A program made the position numbers and the translations under genes. The notes below the pieces were generated by a model. The model saw only the letters and a list, made by a program, of their open reading frames with translations. It was not told the DNA's origin and searched no databases. Shown here one piece after another: positions 10,589-64,000 of a stretch of 64,000 nucleotides of DNA (the stretch's first letter is position 1; every line of letters begins with the position of its first letter). Origin of the DNA: Blasia pusilla (taxonomy: Eukaryota); contig CM114271.1 in the NCBI GenBank assembly GCA_050084515.1, forward strand, positions 19,902,001-19,966,000. Direction: 5' to 3'.

Positions 10589-12538
10589 CTAGACATAGTG
10601 TGAGCTCGAGCGAGACGGCGTGCTGTGAGGCGAGCTCCGACCAGATCGATGCGATGGAGATGGGGTGCAGCGGTCGCTAATATTCGTGGGACGTTCCTGG
10701 GACCCTACGTAGCAGCCCTGTGCTGGTGGTAATGAGCTCCCGATCGGCCTAATGTGAACCCTAAGTTTTGCCCCTTGAGTCTCTATTTGGAGCGGGTTCG
10801 ATAGAGGCCGGTATCCGGGACTGCGGTCCTTGGGAGAACTAATTCTGCTGCGGATCTTATCCGGCTGCCATGAAGTGAATGAAGGCTGGTATCCAGGACT
10901 GCGGTCCTCGGGAGAACTGCTTCTGCTGCGGATCTTATCCGGCTGCCATGACGTGAAGGAAGGCTGGTATCCATGACTGTGGTCCTTGGGAAAACTGCTT
11001 CTGCTGCGGATCCTAGCCCGCTGCCATGAAGTGGAGGAAGGCTGGTATCCGGGACTGTGGTCTTTGGGAGAGCTGCTTCTGCAGCGAATCGCAGGCGGCT
11101 GCCATGAAGTGGACGAAGGCCGGTAACCGGGGGGGCTGTTGTCGGCAGACTTGCCCTGTCCACGATTCTTGTGGCTGGAATAGGTCGTAGCTCCAGCAAC
11201 TCTTCGAAAACCGCTTCCTGGGCTTGCCAGTTTCTTTTTCACTTTCGGGGATTTTCCCGGGGAATTCTTACCAGTGCGGGCAGAACTTTTGATCACCCTA
11301 CGGCCCGAGCCTACGGGAGAAGGCGGTCTACTGCCCGCGAAACCTCGGGGATTCGGAGGTGTGCTCCGACGGACCGGACTTTTGAGGCTGTTGCGCGGTC
11401 CTACGGGGGACTGCACGAGAGATATCCTCTTGGGCCTTGGGAGCGGCGCTTGAGGAGATTGCCGTGGACTGCCATGGAAGCCGCGCTGAGTTGCAGGCGG
11501 GGGAATGTCGCGACTGGGAGAATGCTGACGAGCGGACCTCTGGATTCGCAAGCGTACGGCCGGTCTAATGTAGGTACGGCCATCCGACGTCCTAGGAGGG
11601 TACACACATTCTGCATCTTCGGGATCTGAGATTGGAGACGGGGGAGGTCTGACTGCTGGTGCGCTCCGCGGCCTTTCCTGGTCTACGTGGGCCCTGGCTG
11701 CAACAGACCTCGCCCGTCCGGAAGGGGTTTCTTCCCTCCTGGAATTTGCGACCCTGCCTATCCCTGCTCTAGCAGTCCAACCTCCGCCCGGGCCTTCGTT
11801 CTTTCGGAAAAGCGCCATCGTCTCTGTGTTATCTAGCATCCGGGTTTCGTGCCGCGGTCGGGAGGCGTACTTGGATGGAACTTTGATTTTGGGTGGAGTT
11901 TTATAGCGCTCTCGGATGAAACCCCAAGGAATCCCCGGTTCCTCGGGACTTCTCGGAGGGCTGGGATTTCGGGAATGACCTGTTGGAGTCCGAGAGCGTT
12001 CTGCGAGGAGGCGGCTTGGATTTTGCCCATGTCGTGGCGGATTAGGTGAATGCTCTCGGGCAAAGTCCCAAGGAATCCCTGCTTCATCTTGGGCATGAGT
12101 TATTGACCAGCCTCGATCACTCCCGGTCTGACCGCGATCTAGCCAGCTTTCCTCGACTTCGTCAAAGGGTTCCCCGGTGCGCCGGAGCTGAGCCACGAGG
12201 TTTCTAGGGCAATCTGGAGCGTTCAGCAGGAAATTGTTGAACGAGCGCTTGTCACCTTTCCAGTTGTTCCTATATCGCACGCGGTCATGGTAGAGCATCC
12301 CAATTCTGCGTGTGGTGGGGCTGGGATCTGGGCTGCCCAAGCAAGCCACCGGGGAGAGCGATCTGAAGGGTGAAGGAATACCAAAACATGATATTATAGC
12401 TTGTTCAATTCGCGTCTGTGTGTCGTCACTTCGAGGACTCCCTCGGCTCTGGTTGCTAGACATGTAGCTCACGAGCATCCTCATCACAGGCCATCTCGGA
12501 TGCCATGGAGATACGATTAATCCGAAGGGACGTTCCAT
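10589..12538 (-). CDS. Uncharacterised Ser/Pro/Arg-rich, probably disordered protein (649-aa ORF; may be one exon of a larger gene)
   Basis: ATG-initiated 1950-nt uninterrupted ORF in GC-rich sequence with SP/RS-rich composition and internal in-frame repeats; no recognisable domain. Confidence 0.55.
   Translation of the reverse strand: MERPFGLIVSPWHPRWPVMRMLVSYMSSNQSRGSPRSDDTQTRIEQAIISCFGIPSPFRSLSPVACLGSPDPSPTTRRIGMLYHDRVRYRNNWKGDKRSFNNFLLNAPDCPRNLVAQLRRTGEPFDEVEESWLDRGQTGSDRGWSITHAQDEAGIPWDFAREHSPNPPRHGQNPSRLLAERSRTPTGHSRNPSPPRSPEEPGIPWGFIRERYKTPPKIKVPSKYASRPRHETRMLDNTETMALFRKNEGPGGGWTARAGIGRVANSRREETPSGRARSVAARAHVDQERPRSAPAVRPPPSPISDPEDAECVYPPRTSDGRTYIRPAVRLRIQRSARQHSPSRDIPPPATQRGFHGSPRQSPQAPLPRPKRISLVQSPVGPRNSLKSPVRRSTPPNPRGFAGSRPPSPVGSGRRVIKSSARTGKNSPGKSPKVKKKLASPGSGFRRVAGATTYSSHKNRGQGKSADNSPPGYRPSSTSWQPPAIRCRSSSPKDHSPGYQPSSTSWQRARIRSRSSFPKDHSHGYQPSFTSWQPDKIRSRSSSPEDRSPGYQPSFTSWQPDKIRSRISSPKDRSPGYRPLSNPLQIETQGAKLRVHIRPIGSSLPPAQGCYVGSQERPTNISDRCTPSPSHRSGRSSPHSTPSRSSSHYV
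10806..11135 (-). repeat. Coding tandem repeat, 78-bp unit (26 aa, SPGYQPSxTSWQPxxIRSRSSSPKDx), ~4.3 copies
   Basis: Units starting ggc(c/t)ggtatcc recur about every 78 bp (near 10807, 10885, 10963, 11041, 11119) and keep the frame of the 649-aa ORF. Confidence 0.9.
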
Positions 12539-14940
12539 TTCAACTTCGATCGCTCCAGCTCATCGGATTATTCCAGTGCGAAGAAGCAATTATCCGCACT
12601 CCCGAACACAAATTGAACTATCCATCTCGAATGCCTCCATTCCAGGACCCTGAAAGGCCAATCCATGCTGGCCGTGCCTCCCCACTCTCCGACCCTCCCA
12701 TCCGTTTTCTTTCCCACCCTTGAACCACCAACGACACATGAGATACTAAATATGCCCTCTTTCCCAACCGTCGCGACTGTCGGCCGCACCAGCCTTCAGG
12801 CAAGGCAGGTAAGTAGGGATGAAGGAACTGACGATGTGGATGGCGGCACACAGAATATTCCGAAGGATGATTTACATCCCTTAAACCCAGCTGCGATGCA
12901 GCCGGCTCGAATCCGTCACTAATCAATGCTCCTTGGGGCATAGGATTGATGATGTGCCCGAATTCCATCACCGCTGCTCTCTCGATCATGGTTTCTAGTG
13001 CCCCAAGTCCTTCACCGATGCTCTCTCCCTCTCTCCGGTGCACTTTTCTGTCGTAGACCACTCAGGAAAGGCAGTCTCGCTTCTCTCACTGTACACTTCC
13101 CGATGCGATAAAAAATCCCGAAGAAAATGGCCCACCACCTCGCGCAAGCATGCGACAAGGATCAAAGAGTCTTCAAGGAAGGGACAAGTCAGCGAGCGAG
13201 AGTGACCCTCTCACTTCCAGGACACACCAAATAGTAAACGAAGCTTAATTCGCTCACTCTGTCATCCGCAGCTCAGCACCTACCTCCAGCCCAAAAGTCC
13301 TCCGAAACCCACTCCTTTCCGCTTTCCAGTCCGAAGACGGAACGGCCCCATCCGTCAGGCTGCCAACGATCTCCATCCGGTAGATCGAGATCGCAAGAAG
13401 TTATAGCGGGAGAGTTCGCCTGCGACAGGAATATGGTCCCACAGTTGCGAGATTTTAGCACTGCTCTCCAAAATAAGAATCCTACCTATATTCTGACATG
13501 ACTCCAGAGAAGAAGAAGATATTCGCGAAATAGCGGATAACAAAAACGTAACTCTTCTATTTTTCGTGTGGGAAGACTAACGAATGATAGTTTCATTAGA
13601 GAGCTCGTCAAGATGAGTCGAGACTGGGCTAGGCCCAGATAGGGTTTGGCAAGAAGCTTAACCAGTCATGGCACAACTTACAGCCCACCTTTGACCGGGG
13701 TTTCGGTTCCCCACCGTCTTGTGAGTTGCCTCCTGGTAGATACGCATTAATTCTGTCAATTCCTAGACAAAGGATGCCGCAGGCCCACATATCTGGCCGG
13801 CATTTTCGTCCATGTTTCCAGTCCTGGAAGTGATCCTCAAGCACTGGACGCATCCACTTCTCGGTTACAGAGAGGGGCCCGTCCTTGGGATCCAGAACTG
13901 CATTTCGTGTGGGTTTCCACGTGTGTGGCCGTCCGTAGATTTCGCTTCAAAGGCTGTTCGTCGGTTATTCGCTGTGGCCCTCCCATCGAGCATTTGCTAC
14001 GTTTCATGCCGACGTTATAGAAAATCCAGTCCCATAGCGACACCTGGCTGGTGAATCAATTTCCCTCCGGTCAAGTCGGACTCTCCGGCCTTCATTTAAT
14101 CCCAAAGCTGCATCAATATTCGGTAATTTCTTTGGAGTGCGATCCCAAGTAAGTTTAAGTGTAACCGTAAACAGTTTCGTGGAAGACATGTCCGCCCTCA
14201 TATTTCGCTGGAAGGCGCTGTCCGGTTTCGGATACCGTCAAGTGTAACGTCGAAACGATACGGCAAACAATTCTTGGTTATATCCTGAACGTGCTAAGCT
14301 ACCTGATATCTCTACCCTTATAGTACTGCGGAGGGATCCGAACCAGCGTCATTGCAAAATATGAAAACATTCATTAGACACAGTACCATTCGTGACACGG
14401 TACCATACGTGACACACTCTCACACAGCCACAATCTAAATCCCCGACATTGCAACTGACAGTCTGCAGAGCAGAACACAAGAAGCAGGTATTTCCCATCC
14501 CAATGTACACATTTATAATTGACATCGAAAATGTAGGTGATCTGGGCCGGTCACCGATGTTACAAACTCCGTCAAGCAGTCCATGCCTCACGGAACAGTG
14601 TGGACTCACCTACCACATAGTTCCTGATCAAAAGAAACCCATACTGACCTCAGCGGAAAGATTCGAAGCCTATCCTACAACAGATTGATGTTGGAAACCC
14701 AGTAAGAGAATCGATATCAAGAAGTGCCGGAGCAGAACCCTCTGATAGGGAGAGGTTCTTCGCTTTGAAATATTAGGAATTAGACGCGAGTGAAAGAACC
14801 AAGAAAGTCCGGCATTTGGAAGAATAATACAGAATGAGAAAGCCCCATGGAAGACTACTCCGCAATACTACACATTCATTGGATCCATTCTCCTGGATGC
14901 ATGCTCAAAGAAGAGTGAAGCGAAACGATTAAGATCGGCA

Positions 14941-31962: not shown

Positions 31963-31967
<5 letters not shown>

Positions 31968-32020
<53 letters not shown>
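31968..32020. repeat. (CT)n microsatellite
   Basis: Direct reading; abuts the left end of retroelement copy 2. Confidence 0.95.
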
Positions 32021-32023
<3 letters not shown>

Positions 32024-32508
32024 GTGCGCATACACATCGTTATCACGGAATACACACACAAACACACAGGATCCCATGCTAACTCATGGCATCCAAACAA
32101 CAAGACAAGAAGTACTAAAATATCTCTAATAAAAGTAAGATCCAATCTTTGTCTACACCATCTCACACCATAGCTCTCAAAGGTGTGCACTCTCTCTCAT
32201 GTCAAACCAAACCCACTCTCCTAATGAGAAGTTTGGGTTACACTCACAAGGCAACGGAGCATAGCTCCGCCGCCTTATGCCAAGAGGTTCAACCCCTCTC
32301 CCAAGCTCTCTTCATGGTAACCTATTCTCCCAAGTCACCTCCTTGGCTCTTGACCTGATGTAGGAGGTCAAGGGCCACTTACCAAAAATATAAAGTCGAT
32401 CACATATTCAAAATGGTACTTACCTAAAATAGTAAGTTCCTCAATATGGCTCCAAATGAGCCGAAACGAAGGGAAAACATGCTCTCTCAATTTTTCAAGG
32501 CCTCAACA
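32021..32508 (-). mobile_element. 3' terminal repeat of retroelement copy 2: partial A' (~32130-32508) plus terminal B' (32021-~32130)
   Basis: 32160-32508 matches 43559-43949 in the same orientation (with a ~45-bp deletion) and the reverse complement of ~59300-59715. The minus-strand end ...gtgtatgcgcacaac resembles the copy-1 terminus ...gtatgcgcacgaca. Confidence 0.8.
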
Positions 32509-34065
32509 TGGACACCTGGACATGGTGGTAGAGCACCACCAACAGCCAGAGGAGATGGAACAAGAACACCAGAGTCGGAACTTCTCTCACGCATCGATCA
32601 GTTGGAGCAGAGGATTGTTGCCATGACGATGATACAGCTTAGGGAAGGCACGGAGTGCGAGCAGCTAGTGTGACTCCAGCTTCTATCTCTTACCCTGAGT
32701 TATGTATAGTGCAGCCCAAGTTGAGGCAGCTGTAGTGGTGACTCGGGGTGCTGGGAGAGGCACCGAGCCATTGAGAGGTGGAGTTGAGATGGACCCACTA
32801 GAGGGGACCGATGGGCGGCAGGCCAGTGTTCCATAGTCATTCACATTGTCGGAGGCACTACACACACCATCGATGGTGCCTCGACGACCAGCGGTGCCTA
32901 TAGCTCAGGCACTTAGGTCGGCGTCACGAGGGGTTGGAGTGACAACTCCTATGCCGGCTCGAGTGGAGTCACCGTCGACCACAGTGTTGGAGGTGGCCAC
33001 TAGAGTGAGTCAGACTCCACTATTTTCCGCCATAGAGTTGGCGACGTTGGGAGTTGGACCAGTTGAGGTGTTATGGCTGGCCGCCACGTTGTGTGAGCGT
33101 GGAGAGGTGACTGCTTCTTGTTTAGAGGTAGTTGAGGAGGTGGTGGACTTGCCCTCAAAGCCGCTGCTCGGGACGTTCCCCATAGAGTCATAGCATGTGG
33201 CAGCGGCGAAGTTAGTAGATATGCCAGCTCAACCGGCCATAGAGCGAGCAGTGGTGACACCTGGAGTAGTGTTAATGGATAACCGAGTTGGAGTATTTTG
33301 ATTGGTTAGTCCGACGGGGATAGTATACCACTCGTAGCTCGTCCTACTTGATTCGGGAGCGCAACCCTTGATGTTAGGGAAGGCGGCGTGTTTAGTGTTG
33401 GGGTTACGGAAGGCTGATATTGAGCCTTGTCCCTTCCAGATAAAGACCTCAATCGGGGGCGTGTCATCCACGCAGTATCTGACTTGACAGGAGATAGTTG
33501 TCAGAGTCCAGCCAGAGCATGCGACGGATAGTGCTATGGTGCGCACACGTGCGATTACAACACCAGCTCAGTCGTACGATGTGTTGGTGGGGAGTACATT
33601 GTTATATCCCCTAGGATTCATCATTGACTTCTGGGAGGAGACCGTTGCTTATCGGCCAAGGTGGAGTTCAGGTGAAGACCGGATGATGCAGTTACCCGTG
33701 CAATTTGCGGGATGAGGTGGTCGATCACAAGGCGAGTCTATGACCACGTTGGCAGCTTTCACAGGTAGTGTTAGCTGGCCAGGAGAGTTGTTGGAGGGGA
33801 ACGCACATGCAGAGGATGTCCCAGTAGCGGATAGTTCCACGAAGAGACAGGCCATGACGGTTATCTCTTCCCATATTGGCGAGACCTCTTCACCATTATG
33901 GGATACGACTCGAGAGCTATAGAGGAGTGCCGACGACCTCGTGAGGCAGGCGTGGAGTCATGCTTTTATCCCGGAGCAGCGAGAGTCACGTGGCGATCGG
34001 GCTCTTGTAGTGGAGACGTTGACCCCACTAGATACCACCCCCGCCGTGTGGCAGTGCCTGAGGAG

Positions 34066-35020
34066 GGTGTTAGGGTGTTAGATCTCTTCGGAGGGATTAG
34101 CACCGGATTGGCTGCAGTATTGCAGGCGGGCATACGGGTGCATCAATACCTTTATGTGGAGAGAGATGAGATCGCATGGCGAGTATCATTACGTCACGTG
34201 GCGAGATTGGTCCAGAGGTATCCTGAGTTGTTGCCGGTAGCTGTAGTACTGGGATATCAGCATACACTACCCGCCGACATCTCTTTGGTGGGTGCGCAGG
34301 ATCTGGATAGAGTTGGCACCATTCATTTGGTGATTCCTGGATGGCCATGTCAGGGTCATTCATCAGCTGGCCGAGGATTTGGATTGCAGGAACCGAGGTC
34401 AGGGATGTTTTGGGAGATGCTACGAGTAGTTCAACACTTGCATGAGAGTCAGACATGTTCTCCAATCTACATTTTGGAGAACGTGCCATTTTTTGGAGAC
34501 ACTCGTGCACGTGTGATGACAAATGTGCATCAGGTGAGGTCTTGGTTGGGACCTGCTGTGTTATTAGATGCGGCAAGAGTTGGATCACATGCCCATCGTC
34601 CATGACTGTGGTGGTCAAACCTGATACCATGAGAGGTACTGAGTCGAGCATACGATGGAGTCCAGAGAGCACCACATCTCACAGTGGATGATATTTTGGG
34701 CTCAGGGCGTCGATCTCAGGTGGTGACACGGGATGATAGACCACCGTTCGCCATGGCCAATAGGGTGGGGGATTTGAGGGCAGCCTTACCTACGTTGGTG
34801 AGCTTCCCAGCATCCCATGCCTTTCGTCAAGGAGGGCCAGGCATGATTTGGGATGAGGTGACCGAAGCATTGGAGGAGCCTATAGCAGATGAGCGCGAGC
34901 GCGCCATGGGGTTCGCTACCGGTACTACGGCCGTGCTAGGGATGACTGAGGCATCCCGGAGATAGGTGTTGGGGCAGGCGATGGACCTCAACTGTCTCAC
35001 ATGGATAGTCAGCCTAGGTA
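34066..35020 (+). pseudogene. DNMT3-like DNA (cytosine-5) methyltransferase domain inside the retrotransposon pol polyprotein, with in-frame stops
   Basis: Motif I VLDLFGGIS (34075), II YVE, III DI, IV GWPCQ (catalytic PC at 34345-34350), VI ENV (34477), VIII AHRP*LWWSNL (34591), IX ERERAMGF, X RR*VLGQAM. Same reading frame as the downstream RT fragments (33898, 34684, 35320, 35686, 35890 and 36103 are all in frame). Confidence 0.9.
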
Positions 35021-35319
35021 TGACTGAGCAGAGATGGATGTGAGTGTCATCCATGCCGTCACGTCCACGAGTTGGACCATTGCCTACAGTGTCTGTACAT
35101 GCATTGGATGGGGGCGAGAGGAGGAGAGATAGGCACCCATGGACTTCCTGGGACGTCGTTTGAGCAGAGAGTGCAAAGGCGGCCAGAGTAGCACATGTTC
35201 ATTTTTTGGATGTAGAGCATGGTGTAGGAGGTCAGAATGGAGTGGTTGTTGCGGAGATGGCTAGGGTTGCTACATAGCAACCAAAGCCGCAGGTTGCGTC
35301 CTTTCTGAGTGAGGTCACG

Positions 35320-36640
35320 ATGGAGACTTGGGAGCCTATGATAGGTCTCAAGTTGATAGGAGGAGAGCGACGGCAAGTTCATAGGTTTCTGAGAGGGCAT
35401 GTCAATTTTTTTGCCTTCAATATGAGAGACTTGGGTACGCTGAAGGGTCCCTGGATACGGATTGAGTTGGCTAGTGATACGCCAATCTTTCGTCGACCCT
35501 ATAGGTATTCCGATATGGAGCGAGCCTTGATTCAGAGCAAGAGTCAGGACTTGTTGGAGGTAGGACTTGTGGAGTTATCACATGGGGAGTATGCATCTGC
35601 CACAATCATGCCGGCGAAGAAGGATATGTATGGCAATTGGACGGATAGGCGGATATGTGGAGATTACCGTCCTATCAACCGATAGATGAGGTCAGATCGG
35701 TACGCCATGCCTACTCTTGAGGAGATCTTTGATGCGGTAGGGCATGCAAAGATTTTCAGTACTTTAGATCTCCGTGATGGCTATCATCAGCTTCCTATTA
35801 GGTTGGAGGACAGGGAGAAGATAGCATTATGGGGGATAGATCAGTTCGGGAGAGATTGCTTGTATCATTAGCGGTTCTTACCATTTGGGTTGAAGAACGC
35901 GCCTGCAGAGTTTGAGAGAGTGATGGATAGGATTCTAGCTGGCTTGGATTTTGTACGATGTTACATAGATGATATTCTTATCTTCAGTTCCAGGGTTGAG
36001 GAGCATGAGCGAAACTTGGAGGAGGTGTTTCGGCGATTGCAATTACATGGACTGAAGTTACATCCATGCAAGTGCAGATTCTTTCAGGAGTAGATTGAGT
36101 ACTTGGGACACACCATATACCCGAGTGGGTTAGGCATTCAGCAGACGAAGGTAGAGTCTGTTGCGCAGATTCCACGCCCTACAGATGTGAGTCGAGTCCG
36201 AGCATTTTCTGGGCTGGCGAACTTCTATCGACGATATGTCAAGGGTTTTAGTGCGATCGCAAAGTCTTTGATCTTGTTGACGAGACTTGATCGGGTTTGG
36301 TTGTGGGGAGATGATCAGGAGCGAGCATTTCAGGAGCTCAAGGACATATTGACCTCCTCACCCATTTTACAGAGACCAGTTAGGGGTCGCCCATTCTAGT
36401 TACATACGGATTGGAGCATGTTGGGTCTAGGAGCAGTGCTTACTCAGAGGGATGACGAGGGAGAGTGCTTGGCTGCAGTGTGGGCCGTGGCACATTTCAG
36501 GTGTTATTTATTCGGCAACCCTTTCACACTTATCACCGATCATCAGCCGTTGAGGTGGTTGATGGAGTCCGACAAGCTTACGAAAAGCTTGTGAGATGGG
36601 CTCTATTACTACAGGAGTATGAGCTGGTTCATAGGCCAGG
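35320..36640 (+). pseudogene. Reverse transcriptase / RNase H of retroelement copy 1
   Basis: ORF fragments 35320-35685, 35686-35871, 35890-36093 and 36103-36399 with RT motifs including YIDD; RNase H carries a 72-bp deletion relative to copy 2. Confidence 0.92.
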
Positions 36641-37059
36641 TCGGCTAAAAAGGATGCGGATGGGTTGCGTCGTAACCCATGTCCGAGTCAAAGAGACGAC
36701 ACAGGAGCTCGATGGCACGGAGAGAGTGATGAGGAGATGGTGCCCGGTTGGCATGCATCTGCCTATCTTTGTTGGTTGACTATGGCAGGTCAGCCATAGG
36801 TGATGACTCTAGTGGTGGGGTTGGATGATGAGTCTTTGGATCCATAGGTTAGTGAGGAGGCAACAGATGGTCGTGATATCCATGACGACGTGGAGGTTGT
36901 GGAGTTCTTGTGCACTGGCGTCATAGCGAGTACAGTGAGTGCTAGGGAGCGGGATCGGATCCTACAGAGAGCCAGGAGGTTCAGGTGGGAGGGGACTCAC
37001 ATTTTGCGGGTCTGGGGAGATGGTAGGATACGAGTGGTACCTCATCCTTCCCAGAGAGC

Positions 37060-38317
37060 ACGTGTAGTGCAACATGCCCATGAGGAGTTGTGATATTTTG
37101 GAGTAAAGCGTACTTACAACTTACTTCAAGTTCAGTATTGGTGGCGCGACATGCATACTGGGGTACAGTAGTTTGTGGCCAGATGTATGGTATGTGACAG
37201 AGTGCGAGCATCCTTCAATGCTCCCACTCCGCAATTACATCCTTTGCCGATTATGGGTTTAGATTATCGGTGGAGTTTAGACTTTGGGGGACCTTTGCCA
37301 TTGACGGGGCATCATCATAGGTACGTGTTGGTCATGATGGAGCATTTCTCCAAGTGGATAGAGTTGGTGGCACTACTAGATAAGGCGAGCAAGGGAACAG
37401 CTTATGCATTTCTAGATCGTGTGCTTAGTCACTTTGGTGCACCGGCGGAGGTGTTAACTGACCAGGGTACAGAAGTCAGGGGAGAGTTTCAAGCCTTGTG
37501 TGATCATGCGCTGATAGATCACTATACCACGTCCAGAGATCATCCTGAGGCGGATGGGTTGGCGGAGAGAGTGGTACAGACGGTGAAGAGAGGATTGCGC
37601 AAGTATGGCTTGCAGCGGGGACAGTTGAGGGAGTAGGACCTATAGTTTCCATGGTTGGCTATGGGTTATCATTTTAGTTGGCAGGCATCCTTGGCGTCAT
37701 TTTCACCGTATTTTTTGCTCTTTGGGAGAGAGCCAGATTTACATGCAACGATTCGACGTGACATGAAGGAGGTGTTAGATCTTGATGATCCAAATGTGTG
37801 GGTACAAGCATGTTCTTAGAGGGCGGAGGTTTTTTGTAGAGTTATGCCTATGGCCTTTGAGAACTTAGCTATTGCCCAGCATAGAGATACATTGAGGTAC
37901 GCGACCATTCGTGAAGGAGGTTATCGTCCAGGGATTAGGAGTTTTCATCTTGGAGATTACGTGTATTTATAGCAGGCGGCACCCACGACACTAGATGTCA
38001 CTACAGGGCACAAGATCCTACGTGTGCGCGAGGTATTACCGTCCGGAGTCCTCATGTTGGAGGCATAGGATGGTATGGTTTGGAAGGATCATGTGCGCAA
38101 TTGTGCGCAATGTCATCTTTCGAACGTAGATGGGATGGTGGATCCGAGCTTGGAAGTGGTACCTGCAGGCTTGAGGTGTATGTTGTGCGGATCTACGAGG
38201 GGTGCAGCCATCATGTTGGTATGTGATGGTTGTTCTCGAGGGTGGCATATGTCATGTCTGAACCCCCCTCTTGATGTGGTTCCCACGAGACGATGGATGT
38301 GTCCGAGATGTGTATAG
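37060..38317 (+). pseudogene. DDE (rve) integrase with C-terminal PHD finger
   Basis: HAHEEL...CMVC zinc-binding region, WSLDFGGPLP, EHFSKW, VLTDQGTE, HPEADGLAERVVQTVK. PHD: CMLC...CDGC...WHMSC...WMCPRC. Confidence 0.9.
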
Positions 38318-38393
38318 GGTAGTAGGTCATGTTAAAGAGATGTGATGGTTTCTATCTAGAGTTGGGGGGATCCAACTTCCAGCTAGGAGGGCG

Positions 38394-39153
38394 GTTGTGT
38401 GATCTCCATGTATATGTATGAGTTGATTTTTGTACATGTGTGGATCGATCCGTGTTTAGGGAAGATCGGTGTTGTGTGGTGTAGATGTGACCAACAATAT
38501 ATGTTGTGTAGGGGTATGTATGCGCACGACAGCTGTCACATCTGAGTAGCCGATAGGCCAAGATCTATTATGGATAGGGCGTAGGAGCCAGCGGACTATC
38601 TTGAGTGTAACTTTGTCCCACGGTGTCGGATGAGGTTGAGGATAGGTCCATTGTGTCAGGAACGTCGTTTCTAGAAACTTTCATGTTGAGGTCTTTCACA
38701 GTCGGATGACTTGTTGACCAGGTCATCCGCCCTTGGTAACCTGTGCGTGCAGGTTACCAAGGGGAGGGCTATTTTTAGAGAAAGAGCCTTTTGGCTCTTC
38801 CCAACCCTATATAAGAGAGGAAGGTGGCTTTTCTAAGCCATCTTTCTCATGTTGGGCTGTTGGAGCACCTCTCTTGTATATGTGTGAGATAGAAATAGGG
38901 TGCTAGCGTCCGGATTCCTTGATAGCACAGGGTGGACGAGGCTCGATATGCCGATGTAGATTGAGGAGTGGAGTTTTAGGCCAGGTGTGCCGTTTTTACT
39001 ACTCTTTATTTTTTGTTGTGTAATCTCCATGTATATGTATGAGTTGATTTTTGTACATGTGTGGATCGACCCGTGTGTGGGAAAGATCAGTGTTGTGTGG
39101 TGTAGATGTGACCAACGATGTATGTTGTGTAGTGATATGTATGCGTCACGACA
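38394..39153 (+). repeat. 3' terminal structure of copy 1: B1 (38394-38531), gc spacer, A (38534-39014, starts TGTCAC, TATA-like ctatataag near 38807), B2 (39015-39153, ends CA)
   Basis: ~138-bp direct repeat gttgtgt(g/a)atctccatgtatatgtatgag...atgcg(t)cacgaca at a 621-bp offset; junction gacagctgtc. Confidence 0.85.
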
Positions 39154-44176
<5,023 letters not shown>

Positions 44177-57094: not shown

Positions 57095-59210
57095 TTAAGG
57101 GAAAGGGCATTGCTTAGGTCATGGTCTTGCAGTCTCCTAGGTACATCCACTTGTCTTGAGAAGAAGTTGCGAATTTGCACCACACCAAAGCATGATGCCA
57201 ATTTGAAAATTGTAGCAAAAAGTCATGTTTCGTTCTTAGTCCTAGGATGAAATTACATTAAATCTAAGTCTGACTCTCAAAGACAAATGGCACCAACACC
57301 GTCCAAGGGAATGGTGTGGATGAAGGAGGTCATACGCCTTCCTATGTCTCTTCCCGAGCACAACACAAGTGAGATATTCCATCCATCCATCATTTATTAG
57401 GGTCATGTTTGAATTAGAAAGGTCGTGGGATTGAATTTGAATAGGTTATTGCTCATGCAATATCATCTTTCATTTGAAAATAGTCAAGGCATTACTTTTG
57501 CATATGCAATTGCTCTTCTTGCACTATGTTCAATCTTACTTTATGGTGTAATAAGAAACTTGTAAACTCACTCTCAAGGTTAAATATTCATGAAGTTGGT
57601 TTTAGTTTGTAAGACGTGATTAACAAGTTTTCCCCCTGTGTGTAGCCGTCAAATGTCTTAATAGAATGATTACATACAATCTTACCTGCAATCACTTCTT
57701 CAAGTAATTCATATTGATAGCAAATATCTAAAAATGTATAATATTTGGCCAATTGTGAAAGGACATATATTAAGGTTGTGTACTATAATGGTGCGTCAAA
57801 GACATAAATCTAGAAGCAAAGCAAGAAAACAAAAAAACAAAATGGCAAGAATAAGAAATTTCTTATCGACTTTACACTCTGATTTGCACAAATATCGCAT
57901 TTATGTTGCATATGGAGAAGTGTCTCAAAGCCAAAACGTTCATGAACTTACAAGTTGATTATAAGAGTCGACTTTGTCATGTAACATTAAGAAATCTTGT
58001 CGTTTTCAAATTTAAAAGTAAAAATCTTACTTTTGCAAGAATAAGAAATTTCAATCTTAAAGATGTGTTTTTTTTTCCTAATTTCATTTACATTCATTGT
58101 CTTTTGATTGGAGGAACACTCTCATTTACACATTTCCTTGTTGCCTATGTTAAAGATGTATTTTTCCCCCAATTTCATGTACATTTCATTGTCTTCTAAT
58201 TGGAGGAATGATTTCGATGTAAGGTATTTTTTAGTAATTCAGTTCAAAATTTCTTAACAAGAAAGATTGTATGAGTAGATTATCTCTCATCTTTAGGCAA
58301 ACTACTATGCATCATTTATTAGCATTTCTACCATGGCTTTATCCCAACATATTCTACAAGTGGCTTCATCTTTCTTTATGAGGTATAGGCACATATTTAG
58401 TGATGTGTACTTCATCTTACTTTATCTCTAGGCTATTGCACTCTTTTAGTTTATTAGCTATGGATAAGCCTCCTTCTAAAAGTCTTCCTTTTCCTATTGG
58501 AGAGGTATTATACTACTTGGTTAGTAGATCCCTATGCTTGCAATTTCATTCCCATTTTAGCTCTAAATTTCACTTTCACTTTAGAGTCCCGCGACCCTTC
58601 CTAGTAGTTGTGAGACCTTCAATTAGGATACACCCCACTTTTGATATTCATCCGCAATGCCTTGCAATTCACATCAATATGGCTAGCACTTTCGATCCAA
58701 CTTCTCGTTTGGTCATATTTGAGGATTTCAATACGCTTTGCAAAAGAAATACTAGCAAAATCTTATTTCATTCCTTCTATGCTTGTGATATGCCCATTAT
58801 CTATCCTCATTGTGTTACATCCAAAGAAAAAATTATTCTCTAATTAGCTTGTGGCTTGCATCAAGGTGATCATGTTGGTGGCTTACTTTTTTCAATTGAA
58901 ATTTTTCATGCCTTCCAAGTATTCTTATCTTTTCTATTCCCTTCTATATATTTTGGATAATATCTACATTGTAGGTCCTTCTTCTCAAGTAGTTCATATT
59001 TATACCCATTTTATGAAGTAATTCTTTGTCTTAACCCCTCAAGCCCAATTTTTTTAAAATGTGAGTCTCCTTCATGCTTTCCCTAGGCATTCACCCCATC
59101 TACTCCTAATTTGAACCATCTATATCGTGAGAGTTGGAGTTCTTGGTGTCCCAACTAGCTTCATAGATTATGTATCCAAGTTCTTGAAGATAGTCATTGT
59201 AAAAGATATT

Positions 59211-62200
59211 TGTCACGTCTCTTAGGATAGATCGGTGAGATCTAGTAGAGCGCCTTCGTGAGTAGCGGAGGATAGGCTCAGTAGGTCAAAGATGACCTGC
59301 TGAGGCCCCGGGAAACTTGAGAGAGCAGGTTTCCCCTTCGTTTCGGCTCATTTGGAGCCATATTTAGGAATTTACTATTTTAGGTAAGTACCATTTTTAG
59401 TATGTGCTCGACTTTCTATTTTTGTGGCCCTTGACCTCCTACATCAGGTCAGGAGCCAAGGAGGTGACTTGGGAGCATAGATTACCATGGAGAGAGCTTG
59501 GGAGAGGGGAGGGGTATACCTCAAGGAGAGACAGCTTGAGAGCTCATTCTCTCTTTGTTGAACCTCTTGGCATAAGACGGCGGAGCTATGGTCCCTTGCC
59601 TTGTGAGTGTAACCCAAGCCTCTCATTAGGAGAGTGGGTTTGGTTTGACGTGTGAGTGAGTGCACACCTTTGAGAGCTATGGTGTGAGATGATGGAGAGA
59701 GAGCTTGGATCTTATTTTACAAAGAGAGAATGAGAGAGTGAGAGAGCTTCATGGGGGAGCTCATTGGTCACTTGTTTTTTTTTGCAAGTTGGGGACTGTG
59801 TTCCCCATTCAACGGCTCATGGGAGTGCTCACCGGAGCAAGGGATGCTTTGATTGTTCTTTGCATTTGCCGATTTTTCGTGTGGAAGAGTGGCGCATTGA
59901 AGCGATGCCCAATTTCTGATAGGGATTGATTATGGGGTAGGTTGCCCCATACTGGTGCTCTTGGAAGCACCATGTAGCTTGCTAATTTGTATTTTTACAG
60001 GTTTTACATTTTCGTTGGGAGAAATCAGCGCAAAAGCACTACCAAATTTTGTGTAGGAGAAAGAGATATTGGGCTTTATGACAGTCCCTATAAGTTTTTA
60101 CAAGAATGTTTGATTCCAAATATTTTTTGACACTATTGTAGATCGTGAAGCTATGCATCTTGTGCAACAAACGATGCGCAATTTGGAGTTGCGAGTAAAA
60201 AGTTATGGTCAATCTTGCAAAACTACCATTGCTAGGCGATTTCTATGGTTAAATTGTTCAAACCCTTAACCAACCGCCACGACGGCGGCGGCATCCGTCG
60301 CGTCATAGTCATCGTCAACAATCAACGTTCAACCATCACAATAAACGGTCAACTATCACTGTCACCGGACGGCCATCACCATCAACGGTCAACCGTCACC
60401 GTCAACGTTCCACAGTCCGTTGTCCACCCTTTGGTTGTTATTGCCGCCGTTACGGAGTGGAGGGTCTTCCACGATGTTCGTTGATTCTATGACTTACGTC
60501 GCCACCACTTACTTTGTTTTGGGTGCCACCATCATCAAAGTTTTGTCATCAACCAGTCATGGCAAATGACAGTACGGGAGGAGTATGACTTGCTGATTGG
60601 AGGAGTTGTCTCCACGACCGAGTTGGGGTCGAGATTTGCAGTTGCTGAGGAGCGACATTGACATGTGTTCAGGTTACCCATTCTGGTCCATTACCCTACA
60701 CGCATGAGGATTTCCGGGATTTGGGTAGTTTATTTGGGGATATTGGATTGTGTGGATGTTGAGAGCATCATTTATGTATGTGGTTTAGGGGACATAGACC
60801 TATGTGGGATGTCCGAAGTTGAGGGTAGTTTTTCGATGAGATGATAGTCTGGTCGATTTCCCGCACCACGCCGCTTGTTGCCGCACGTTACGTCTCAAGG
60901 AGGGAGAGTGTAGATCGAGTGCCGTATGTTTGGGATGAGTGATTGAGGGATTGCTCATGAGGTTGAGAGTGATTGGGTGAGAGGGTCACGAGGGTCATCA
61001 CGGCGTCCGTTCGGGACTTTGAGAGGCGAGGTGGTGAATCTGAGAGTAGCTCTAGAGGTTTTACGCGGAGTGGCGCAAGGTTCCGAGGGTCTCCACGTGA
61101 GGGACCACCTCAACCTCCTTCTATGTCATCGTCAAATGAGGAGGAGGGTGTAGAGGAGTTTGTGAGCACATTGTCACACATTGTGAGTGGTCATACGAGT
61201 TGGGCGTACGAGATGGACGACCGGGATAGAGGAACGCATAGGTTTTCAGGTGCAGTAGGCACGATTTCATAGCAGAGTTTAGGAGTTGGTGCGACTTCCA
61301 GCGAGCTAGGAACTCTAGAGAGTTCAACCCGTTTACACCATGGAACGATATGTTCCAGTATTTTGAGGGGGTGCCCATGGACGATTACCATGAGTTCTCC
61401 CACATATATACCCAGGAGATTGAGGCATGGCAACTCTACTATGATCCACACTATGTATCATGGACAGAGCCATTCCTAGATGAGGAGGAGGAGTCAGGAG
61501 AGGCTACTTCCTCTTCCACTAGTGATGTTTTAGGAGGGGTCACTCACATTGGAGCAGTTGCATCATCTAGTCGGGTTCGTCTGAGGTTCAACCCCATGGT
61601 TGAGTTCTTCGCTGAGTTGAGGGCCAGCTCCCAAGGGGTATGGACGGAGAAGTTGCGAAGCATCCACGACTTCTAGAGGCGCCCAGGTGAGAGTTTGCGT
61701 GAGGCTTACACTCGCTTGCGCGGGTTGATCAACGTCACTCGAGGGGTGATAGAGGCTCAGGCTATCCAATCATGGTACGCGATGTTGGATCGGACCCTGC
61801 GAACACGGATGCGGGAGGGGGTACTTCTTATGAACACCTCCCCTACATTGAGAGATGTTTTTAGGACCACCAAGAACATTGAGCGCAACATGGTGGAGGA
61901 GAGCGTAGCCACCATGGATTCTGGGCGAGAGCACTCACGATTGTCTGTACCACATATGCAACAATGTGGACTCCGAGATAGGTTGACTGTGGCACCACGA
62001 TCTTAGGGAGGATACCGTAAGGCCATGCCACATAGACGTGCACCTTCATATGTGGCTCAACAACAGCCGCCTACTATTACTTGTTGGTTATTTGGTAGAG
62101 CCCATCATCAGCGCGATTGCACTCGTCAAGATCATGGACGTGTGCCTCAGCATGGAGGAGGAGATGGTGCTGCACCAGGAGGTTATCAGTGTGACTATTG

Positions 62201-64000
62201 TCAGAGGTATGGTCATACACGCTCTAGGTGTTTCAATTTACATCCTGAGTTACGTCCGGACCAAGGGCAGAGAGGGCACTAGAGCGAGTAGCCGGCTCGG
62301 GTGGGCCTAGAGATCATGCACCGGGTGGTTCCGTTGGGGGACGAGGAGTTGGAGTTGCCCAACATGGTGGTGAAGCTGCCCGTGGAGGAGGTAGAGTACC
62401 ACCACCTAGACGCGGCGAGGGAGACGTTGGACATGAGGCTGGGATGGCTGCTCAGATACAGCAGTTACAAGAGCAGATTGTTGCAATAGCATTGAGGTTT
62501 CCCGATGCCGGATTCATGGCATCGACATCATATGGAGCAGCCAGAGATATGGAGGATCCTGGTTGGATGTGCGGGGTTGCCCAGATGGAGGCCGCCGCAG
62601 TTGTGACGCGTGGAGCAGCGGTAGAGTTGGATCCACATCGAGGGGAAGCTAGAAAAAATAGGCTAGGCTTCCTTAGTTTTCACGTTGTCCGAAGCGATGA
62701 GGACCCCATCGATGGGTCCTCATCAAAGTTCCTGGAGAGTTGGTGATGTTGTTGGTGTGTAGGCACGGAGGGCAATGGGAGAAGCGAGTGGGACGACTCC
62801 TATTGTTGATGCTCATGAGGGGCATGTGTCGAGCACGTTGTTGGGGGCGACCACCATTGTGTACCGCACTCCTTTATTTTCTGCTTCCGATGTTATGACG
62901 TTGGGGGGTATGCTTGCCAAGGCTTTTTGGCTAGCTGCTTCACTATGTGAGCGCCGAGTTGGAGTTCCTACATCACGTTCAGAGGTGATTGCAGAGGAGG
63001 TGATGGACCTGCCCTTGGAGCGGATGCTCGGGCCATCCACGTCAGATTCATGGCAGGTTGCGGCTGTTAGGATGGTGGAGATGCCCGCTAGACGCGCGAT
63101 AGGGCTTGCCATGGCTTCTCCTGATGTTGTGTTGCTGGATAACCGAGGAGAGGTCTTCCAATTGGTGAGTCTTAGAGATAGAGCTTTTAGTCTGCAACAC
63201 GTCTTGTTGGATTTAGGAGCGCAACCCCTGATGTTGGGGAAAGCGTCATTGAGAGGATTGGGCTTGACGAGAGCCGATGTGGAGCGTTGTCCATTCTGGA
63301 TACAGACATGCTTGGGTGGAGCGAGTACCACACAGTATATCACCCGGCAGGAGGTTGTGGTGAGGATTCTCCGGGATATCCTACAGATGAGTCCGTGGTG
63401 CGAGCCAAGGCGATAGTGACTGATGTAGAGTCCTACGACGTCTTGGTTGGTGGAGTAGTGTTATACTCGATGGGGTTTGCCCTGGGTTATTGGGAGGAGT
63501 AAGCGTCCTACAGACCAGGATGGCAGTTAGGTGATGGGCGCCTTAGCTCATTACCTGTTCGATTCACAAGTGTAATAATCGAGCAACGGCCACGAGAGGT
63601 GGCGACCTTAGCAGCACTTAGCAGTGCCATCACTTGGCCTAGTGATTTGATTGAGGGATATGTCCATGCAGAGGATACTCCCATTCCTGATATTACTATG
63701 GAGAGGAGTGTTATGGTAGCCGCATCATTCCGTGGAGGAGAGGTGCAATTGTGGGGCTCGATTGAGGAGCTTCGACGATTGGTAGATGAGCACGTGCAGA
63801 CCGTGTGAAGCAAGGCGTTTTCACCGGAGCGTGATGGGGCTGAGGAACTCGAGATAGCAGGGAGTGCTACGATGACACCCTTGGATACCACACCCATTGT
63901 GTGGTGTATCCGGGAGGAGAGTATTTGAGTGTTAGATCTCTTTGGAGGGATTAGCACCGGGTTAGCTGCTCTTATGCAGGCAAGAGTGCAAGTGCAGCAG
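59211..64000 (+). mobile_element. Ty3/Gypsy-type retrotransposon copy 3 (same subfamily as copy 2; runs off the window): 5' repeat A', long leader, gag, protease, start of DNMT domain
   Basis: Starts TGTCACGTCTCTTAGG at 59211. Gag fragments at ~61000-62300 with CDYCQRYGHTRSRC knuckle; VLLDLGAQP protease near 63201; DNMT motif I VLDLFGGISTGLAA at 63929-63970. Colinear with the reverse complement of copy 2. Confidence 0.92.

Follow-up and report, generated by a model that had tools for sequence, protein, structure and literature searches.

A Gypsy family of Blasia pusilla with split direct repeats, a self-primer and an internal CA-GC-TG site that may be opened after the cDNA tips are joined

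How does a retroelement that encodes a DDE integrase come to end in split direct repeats, and where on its DNA would that integrase act? The question is raised by a 64,000-nt stretch of Blasia pusilla DNA (contig CM114271.1, positions 19,902,001 to 19,966,000; the window), for which a preliminary description had proposed an A...B-A-B element whose circular form is opened by the integrase at a palindromic CA-NN-TG junction. The coordinates that it gave for the right end of copy 1 were borne out. A purine tract (PPT; 38381..38393, + strand) is followed at its 3' boundary by B1 (38394..38531, +), the first part of the LTR defined by reverse transcription, which ends CACGACA. Then come a gc spacer (38532-38533), A2 (38534..39014, +) and B2 (39015..39153, +), the right terminus. 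B1 and B2 align at about 92%. The 10-bp palindrome GACAGCTGTC (GACA-GC-TGTC) is present as described at 38528..38537, and we regard it as a putative internal attachment site. A2 contains a putative promoter with a TATA-like box (38808..38815, +), a self-primer (38839..38852, +) that is the perfect complement of the 14 nt after A1 in full-length copies, and an R/U5-like end. The A2/B2 joint (39010..39020, +) is where the two cDNA ends would have met.

Three decayed copies from two subfamilies (families 1 and 2) are present in the window. Copy 1 (family 1; 32509..39153, +) has lost its 5' part and sits inside copy 2 (family 2, − strand). Copy 2 retains a 5' part with gag to RNase H and a mostly deleted methyltransferase (39154..44032, −), an A'1 that lacks its own end and primer-binding site (PBS; 44032-43551, −), and a 3' remnant with the terminal B'2 and a partial A'2 (32021..32508, −). 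Both of its ends adjoin (CT)n microsatellites (31967-32020 and 44032-44160), and its terminal TG/CA bases are lost. Copy 3 (+) starts TGTCAC at 59211 and, as had been reported, carries A' alone: A'1 (59211..59718, with a self-primer at 59543-59558) is without B', and no TGG-type site follows it. It is followed by a self-priming PBS (59719..59734) and by the leader, gag, protease region and start of the methyltransferase (59735..64000; motif I at 63935). The 5-bp target site duplication (TSD) atatt proposed for copy 3 was wrong; because paired flanks match over 4 bp, we predict tatt (59207-59210), its left flank. No matching 3' end of copy 3 was found in the 30 kb past the window, where the copy is interrupted by inverted copies, and the layout is shown on other full-length copies in its place. 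Elsewhere in the window, a tandem repeat of about 78 bp (10805-11149) lies within a 656-codon open frame (10589-12559, −).

The family encodes gag with zinc knuckles, a protease (PR), a C5 cytosine methyltransferase (DNMT), reverse transcriptase (RT), RNase H (RH), a DDE integrase (IN) and a PHD finger. In copy 1 (+) the methyltransferase domain has an open stretch at 33835..34605 (Pfam DNA_methylase, E=4e-8) and is broken, with motif I at 34081 in a different frame. RT and RNase H are decayed (35314..36618; Pfam on sister copies), the D, D and E residues of the integrase core are visible (37172..37636; Pfam rve, E=6e-14, and translation), and the C-terminal PHD finger and stop lie at 38177..38317 (translation; Pfam PHD on relatives). 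The Gypsy order gag-PR-RT-RH-IN was found with Pfam on the intact relative L261, whose protease match is below the cut-off, and on stretches of the family's own genome. The methyltransferase is PF00145, and the best solved-structure matches of the L261 enzyme are DNMT3A/B/C (E about 5e-8). No tyrosine recombinase family is among the Pfam matches of L261's two long ORFs, in which rve was found. A chromodomain after the integrase is absent; the PHD finger stands there instead.

In 13 of the 14 own-genome matches, as well as in three relatives (L261, 5083; L263, 4661; L243, 4509), an in-frame TAG stands between gag-PR-DNMT and RT-RH-IN-PHD. It is followed by CAA CCA, or by CAG TTA or CAA TCA. In the window, it lies at the DNMT/RT boundary of copy 1 (TAG CAA CCA, 35275..35283, +) and at about 40567-40559 (−). 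Its context resembles the TMV-type readthrough signal. Thus, the stop is probably read through, and the methyltransferase would then be produced in amounts like those of Gag.

The closest named protein relatives are in Marchantia and Calypogeia, and family 2 groups with them in a FastTree RT tree (support 0.999; 33 of 35 sequences). The link in this tree to the Klebsormidium nitens protein P0033, which we infer to be KnitGypsy-Dnmt3, has a weak support of 0.66. L261 (9,317 b) and L263 (8,399 b), relatives at 48% identity, have long intact ORFs. L261 has a single PPT-B-NN-A-PBS unit and seems to wrap round; it may represent a circle with one LTR, or else an assembly that has collapsed. A broad RT-RH-IN-PHD clade takes in liverworts, Closterium, Klebsormidium, Haematococcus and further contigs. 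Some of its members have a C5 DNMT, and two (P0136 and P0151) have a Dam-type domain.

We are nearly certain that the layout A...B-GC-A-B is family-wide. In full-length copies the order is TSD-A-PBS-gag-PR-DNMT-RT-RH-IN-PHD-PPT-B-GC-A-B-TSD, and the TSDs are 4 bp long. This layout, which had been predicted, holds for both subfamilies and for a third family on metagenome contigs, where L264 and L253 are full-length (TSDs AAGG and TCTC respectively). An 18-letter B-NN-A junction pattern has 1,097 exact matches in the 390 Mb of genome searched (26 contigs), versus 0 for a control. Samples of loci were picked by likeness to one copy and are non-random, except for 30 junction loci taken in order of position. 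Of the 30 loci with the best match to A+B, 17 run from internal sequence through PPT, B1 and a two-base spacer to A and B. The other 13 are solo A+B units (11 with exact 4-bp TSDs, one with a mismatched TSD and one without), which may stem from direct insertion or later recombination. The contrary case named in the preliminary description, two identical A+B LTRs, did not occur: internal sequence follows A+B in 0 of these 30 loci, and B after A, or A-B before it, was found at 0 of 57 A+PBS 5' ends.

Pairing the two ends of single copies gave the same picture. An intact A1 was reached in 10 of 16 upstream fetches, as A alone and then the leader; in these 10 pairs the 4-bp TSD matches the flank after B2 (eight exactly, two with one mismatch). 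Of 30 loci with an A end and leader, 19 have A-B and a TSD at their far end (the TSD is exact in 16, and B1 was visible in 18), one ends at B1, three have internal deletions and the ends of seven were not found. Family 2 is alike, with four of nine pairs closed by a TSD, one of these ending at B1. There are also copies of the form A-internal-B: 11 of 30 PPT+B1 loci stop at B1, and the TSD was confirmed in five of the 10 that were followed. These copies show that B1 can serve as a terminus, via direct insertion or B1/B2 recombination. The first base of the tabulated TSDs is A or T in 31 of 39, and the target motif is not fixed. The family has the TG...CA ends, DDE integrase and short TSD of Ty3/Gypsy elements, but lacks their two identical LTRs, as its left end is A only and its right end is B-GC-A-B. 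Its variable 4-bp TSDs are unlike PAT/Ngaro elements, which have no variable target duplication.

Some loci depart from the simple form. The head-to-tail copies L215 and L228 have one common B-NN-A unit followed by a PBS (two of 111 junctions), and in L229, L072 and L256 an inverted A or inverted internal repeats lie beside the element end. The genome also has at least one further subfamily, which is transcribed and shares the terminal motif but has another B (L031 962-1220, L231, L234 and loose read ends).

That the junction palindrome exceeds chance follows from its conservation, seen in the exact genomic matches that the control lacked, and not from the palindrome by itself. As evidence alone the palindrome was rejected, because the window holds 86 perfect 10-bp palindromes. 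CACGACA-NN-TG is kept in five of the 25 metagenome loci examined (L264, L253, L240, L261 and L263), in relatives at 48-66% protein identity; the set had 39 loci, of which 14 under 4,400 bases were left out. The site was not seen in the other 20, not all of which may reach the 3' end. In family 1 the spacer is GC in 18 of 40 junctions, AC in 10, GT in six, AT in two and something else in four, variants that fit methylation decay of a single GC. The CG in CACGACA is kept in every family seen.

How is reverse transcription primed? The preliminary description was right that there is no TGG-type tRNA site, but a PBS does exist, and it is self-priming. In family 1, A positions 306-319, which lie 31 nt after the TATA-like box, are perfectly complementary to the 14 bases that come next to A1 on its 3' side. 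The complement measures 14, 16, 17 and 16 nt in family 1, family 2, L264 and L261, respectively, with unrelated sequences, and in four of four families the match begins at the first base after A. In a control of 100 shuffles per family, the longest match was 8-10. The missing tRNA site has thus very probably been replaced by a Tf1-like self-primer. At the other end, the PPT lies directly before B1 in 107 of 111 junctions. Given where the PBS and PPT lie, the LTR that reverse transcription defines must be B-GC-A, an LTR without usable ends. In the available portions of the papers, self-priming has been described for Tf1 and Tj1 (PMC4600332) and predicted for the plant element Tcn1 (PMC6317226).

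Because a minus strand begun at the self-priming PBS never reads past A2, B2 and the A/B joint must be rebuilt. The joint lies exactly at both primer boundaries, with A at the PBS side and B at the PPT side. This exact boundary-to-boundary form is the commonest, being letter-exact in 43 of 94 family-1 rows (four of the 94 are spurious motif matches) and 16 of 35 family-2 rows; the other rows mostly have substitutions. Some joints keep PBS-side bases (ACA in L014, a single A in 10 of 31 family-2 joints) or PPT-like bases (12 nt in L087, G in L153 and L154), one has a 19-nt filler (L253) and some delete a few bases. Retroviral circle junctions also keep primer remnants.

Within single elements, B1 and B2 have minor transversions or indels in common (10 versus 1.2 expected, n=40 elements; maximum of 5 in 2,000 permutations), and a second set agrees in sharing minor variants (3 versus 0.3 expected, n=12). 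Five shared variants are private to their element, and a fixed B1/B2 difference is absent in family 1. This likeness could also come from post-insertion gene conversion. A1 and A2 diverge less within an element than between elements (0.043 versus 0.056, n=23) and share variants (86 versus 27.6 expected, n=23). Such sharing is absent in the last 80 nt of A (2 versus 1.4, p=0.43), a stretch in which L042/L019 differ at a heritable variant. A test for inheritance of the joint type on the copy tree gave p=0.50, and a control, whose label is imperfect in three rows, gave p=0.16. Joints with an added A are somewhat commoner in one A' subtype. We think it probable that the A/B joint is made afresh and that the DNA is cut internally.

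Three RNA runs that carry the same species label and come from other individuals were aligned to the family-2 locus L215; the reads mix many decayed copies and show a tendency, not the genomic RNA itself. The RNA is sense-biased, runs through PPT-B-GC-A and drops in the last 100 nt of A. Sense reads are 104-199 deep across B and the junction and 156-228 deep at 1872-1925; the depth is 57-86 where A ends and 22-57 within the leader. In the three runs, the sense reads that join A to B number only 9, 4 and 3. These results suggest that the RNA ends mostly inside A. No read-start peak was found at the predicted RNA start in the three runs on this locus. A skip at 1333-1820 of L215, present in the RNA only, has no GT-AG ends; we read it as a deletion in an expressed copy.

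Based on these sequences, we propose a model that we consider reasonably likely: the integrated form would be a circular permutation of the element's own cDNA, whose tips are joined and whose internal CA-GC-TG is opened by the DDE integrase. The RNA would begin in A1, some 30 nt past the TATA-like box, and finish in A2. Its first 14-17 nt would anneal to the site that adjoins A1 and, as in Tf1, serve as minus-strand primer, and the plus strand would begin at the PPT before B1. Ordinary strand transfers would then yield B-GC-A-internal-B-GC-A as linear cDNA, with no attachment site at either tip. For these steps the case is strong. The tips may then be joined, either through end joining by the host or through a template jump of RT, and the A/B joint would thus be new in every cycle. 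The integrase may nick after CA on both strands of the left-LTR CA-GC-TG and insert the ends, while the right-hand CA-GC-TG may stay uncut and template the next round. One such cut would give two recessed CA ends with 2-nt 5' overhangs and lose the spacer; the spacer is absent at TSD-flanked ends, as the mechanism expects. If a one-LTR form were opened, or if recombination occurred, dead-end A-internal-B copies would result. In the accessible text of PMC11054761, 2-base extensions are the usual integrase substrate, and in that of PMC1180852 the foamy-virus integrase cleaves circle junctions. Thus, the earlier proposal that the integrase opens DNA at CA-NN-TG is supported, but CA-GC-TG does not appear to be the meeting point of the cDNA ends. 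The evidence supports a templated attachment site inside the RT-defined LTR, with cDNA ends that meet at A/B, unlike the PAT/Ngaro analogy that had been drawn.

That the joined molecule is a closed circle seems somewhat likely. A 2-LTR circle has two equal sites, so a second permutation, A-B-GC-A-internal-B, would be expected about equally often; A upstream of B was found in 0 of 111 junctions and this permutation at 0 of 57 5' ends. This asymmetry, in which the right-hand site is never used alone, is the main gap in the model. Most joints are exact, more uniform than the products of typical end joining often are, and this too counts against it. In addition, the circle-precursor model was rejected for retroviruses, as the available part of PMC11054761 relates. 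On balance, we give a little better than an even chance to a streptophyte Gypsy lineage with an obligate end-joined 2-LTR circle that is opened at the internal CA-GC-TG.

The asymmetry would be explained if the element's own Dnmt3-like enzyme picked the site on this obligate circle by marking the CG of CACGACA. The DNMT, made at Gag level before the readthrough stop, would mark the CG at one site. Old and new strands would lie on opposite sides at the two sites, and one site would thus be protected and passed on. This is speculation, and we hold it to be quite doubtful; its basis is the conserved CG and the CG activity published for some such Dnmt3 enzymes (accessible text of PMC5890265). If true, it would also explain why methylases recur in elements with an internal copy of their own ends.

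Alternatively, cutting may precede joining. The left CA-GC-TG would be opened in the linear cDNA and both processed ends inserted while the short B piece is held, and host repair would join the free tips at A/B with no free circle. Every sequence feature, including the primer remnants and filler at A/B, is accounted for equally well, and the missing permutation could be due to the left site being nearer the DNA tip (138 versus 480 bp). However, a double-strand break is needed for each insertion, and frequent large losses are predicted at A/B, where most joints are exact. We consider this order of events rather unlikely.

We give still less credit to a templated restoration of the PAT/DIRS kind, which we think very unlikely. 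Here, the RNA would run into B2, A/B would be copied and B1-GC-A2 would template the ends of a circle. The repeat layout is that of PAT/Ngaro (available text of PMC7192593), the joints are mostly uniform, a few RNA reads do cross from A into B, and the bias of added-A joints towards one A' subtype is in keeping with a templated joint. But the PBS after A1 and the PPT before B1 give ordinary transfers that never read B2, B2 has private variants of its own B1, joints bear primer remnants and the RNA ends mostly in A; this model fits the sequence poorly. Finally, an ordinary two-LTR Gypsy element with B-A-B as a one-off tandem or deletion product has next to no chance of being right, for although the solo A+B units with TSDs (13/30 loci) resemble ordinary solo LTRs, it is opposed by the lack of internal sequence after A+B (0/30), by the 1,097 genomic junctions and by an identical layout in three families.

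To our knowledge, the accepted view for every LTR element and retrovirus studied is that a linear cDNA integrates and that its tips serve as attachment sites. In our preferred model of joined tips and an internal cut, the priming sites are uncoupled from the attachment site, which requires that the tips be joined and that the DNA be opened at another point. The family functions like a self-priming Gypsy element that has its ends permuted via an end-joined intermediate, and it is not a member of PAT/Ngaro.

Among known systems, KnitGypsy-Dnmt3 of K. nitens (de Mendoza et al. 2018; PMC5890265) has Gypsy domains and a Dnmt3-like methyltransferase in Pol; the legend to Fig. 4c likens the arrangement of its repeats to that of DIRS, for which the legend to Fig. 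1e gives A-coding-B-A-B. The Blasia family has a Dnmt3-like methyltransferase and A-coding-B-A-B repeats too, and K. nitens P0033 (DNMT-RT-RH-IN) is 43% identical to it across 260 aa in the DNMT region, with 36-45% identity in RT/RH. KnitGypsy-Dnmt3 is from an alga, and its TSD, priming site, attachment site and mechanism are not given in the accessible text, whereas the Blasia family has over 1,000 copies in a land plant. No mechanism for KnitGypsy-Dnmt3 was found in print, although the figures and supplementary figures of PMC5890265 may show more, and its name was found in no further paper (most subscription papers, theses and Repbase were outside the search). In their available parts, other sources mention streptophyte Gypsy-DNMT3 (10.64898/2026.05.21.726589) and a PHD-bearing element, Gypsy-7a_cRei, with LTR subparts in an apparently different layout (10.1101/2022.06.16.496473). 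No account of the priming, attachment site or integration route of Gypsy-DNMT elements was found in the accessible text of the literature searched, including PMC12344493. Thus, the split-repeat layout was already known from one alga (PMC5890265); its occurrence at high copy number in land plant DNA, the self-primer, the conservation of the internal site and the signs of fresh joints were not found in print and appear to be new.

PAT, Ngaro and SymbioDIRS-Dnmt3 elements share with the Blasia family the A...B-A-B plan, an internal copy of the abutted termini and often a methylase. The Blasia family differs from PAT/Ngaro in having a DDE integrase instead of a recombinase, a 4-bp TSD, and a PBS and PPT; its abutted site is templated and the new joint is A/B. 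In the IS30 and IS3 families, a DDE enzyme cuts abutted ends about 2 bp apart in a circle. These are bacterial DNA transposons whose transposase makes the junction, and the likeness lies in the DDE cut at abutted ends with a spacer of about 2 bp. Tf1/Sushi elements and plant Tcn1 are also without a tRNA site and have a PBS complementary to a region near the RNA 5' end (PMC6317226, PMC4600332, available parts). They have two ordinary LTRs and mostly chromodomains, whereas the Blasia family has a PHD finger, a DNMT and permuted ends. As we propose for Blasia, integrase opens a palindromic CA...TG in continuous DNA in the retroviral 2-LTR circle model and in foamy-virus cleavage (PMC11054761, PMC1180852, accessible text). 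The retroviral site is the tip joint, has a 4-nt spacer and belongs to a side route; the Blasia site is internal, has a 2-nt spacer and appears to be obligatory.

The 2-LTR circle was put forward as an integration precursor by Panganiban and Temin in 1984, and the model was dropped in the late 1980s, as recounted in the available part of PMC11054761. The integration route suggested here is thus one long dismissed for retroviruses and their relatives. With this family, which is natural, transcribed and present in many copies and has Marchantia relatives, the circle question can be put to the test. Such elements will be overlooked or misannotated by LTR finders. The family also offers a route from an ordinary LTR to split direct repeats, and a concrete hypothesis for the unexplained Dnmt3 that transposons carry.
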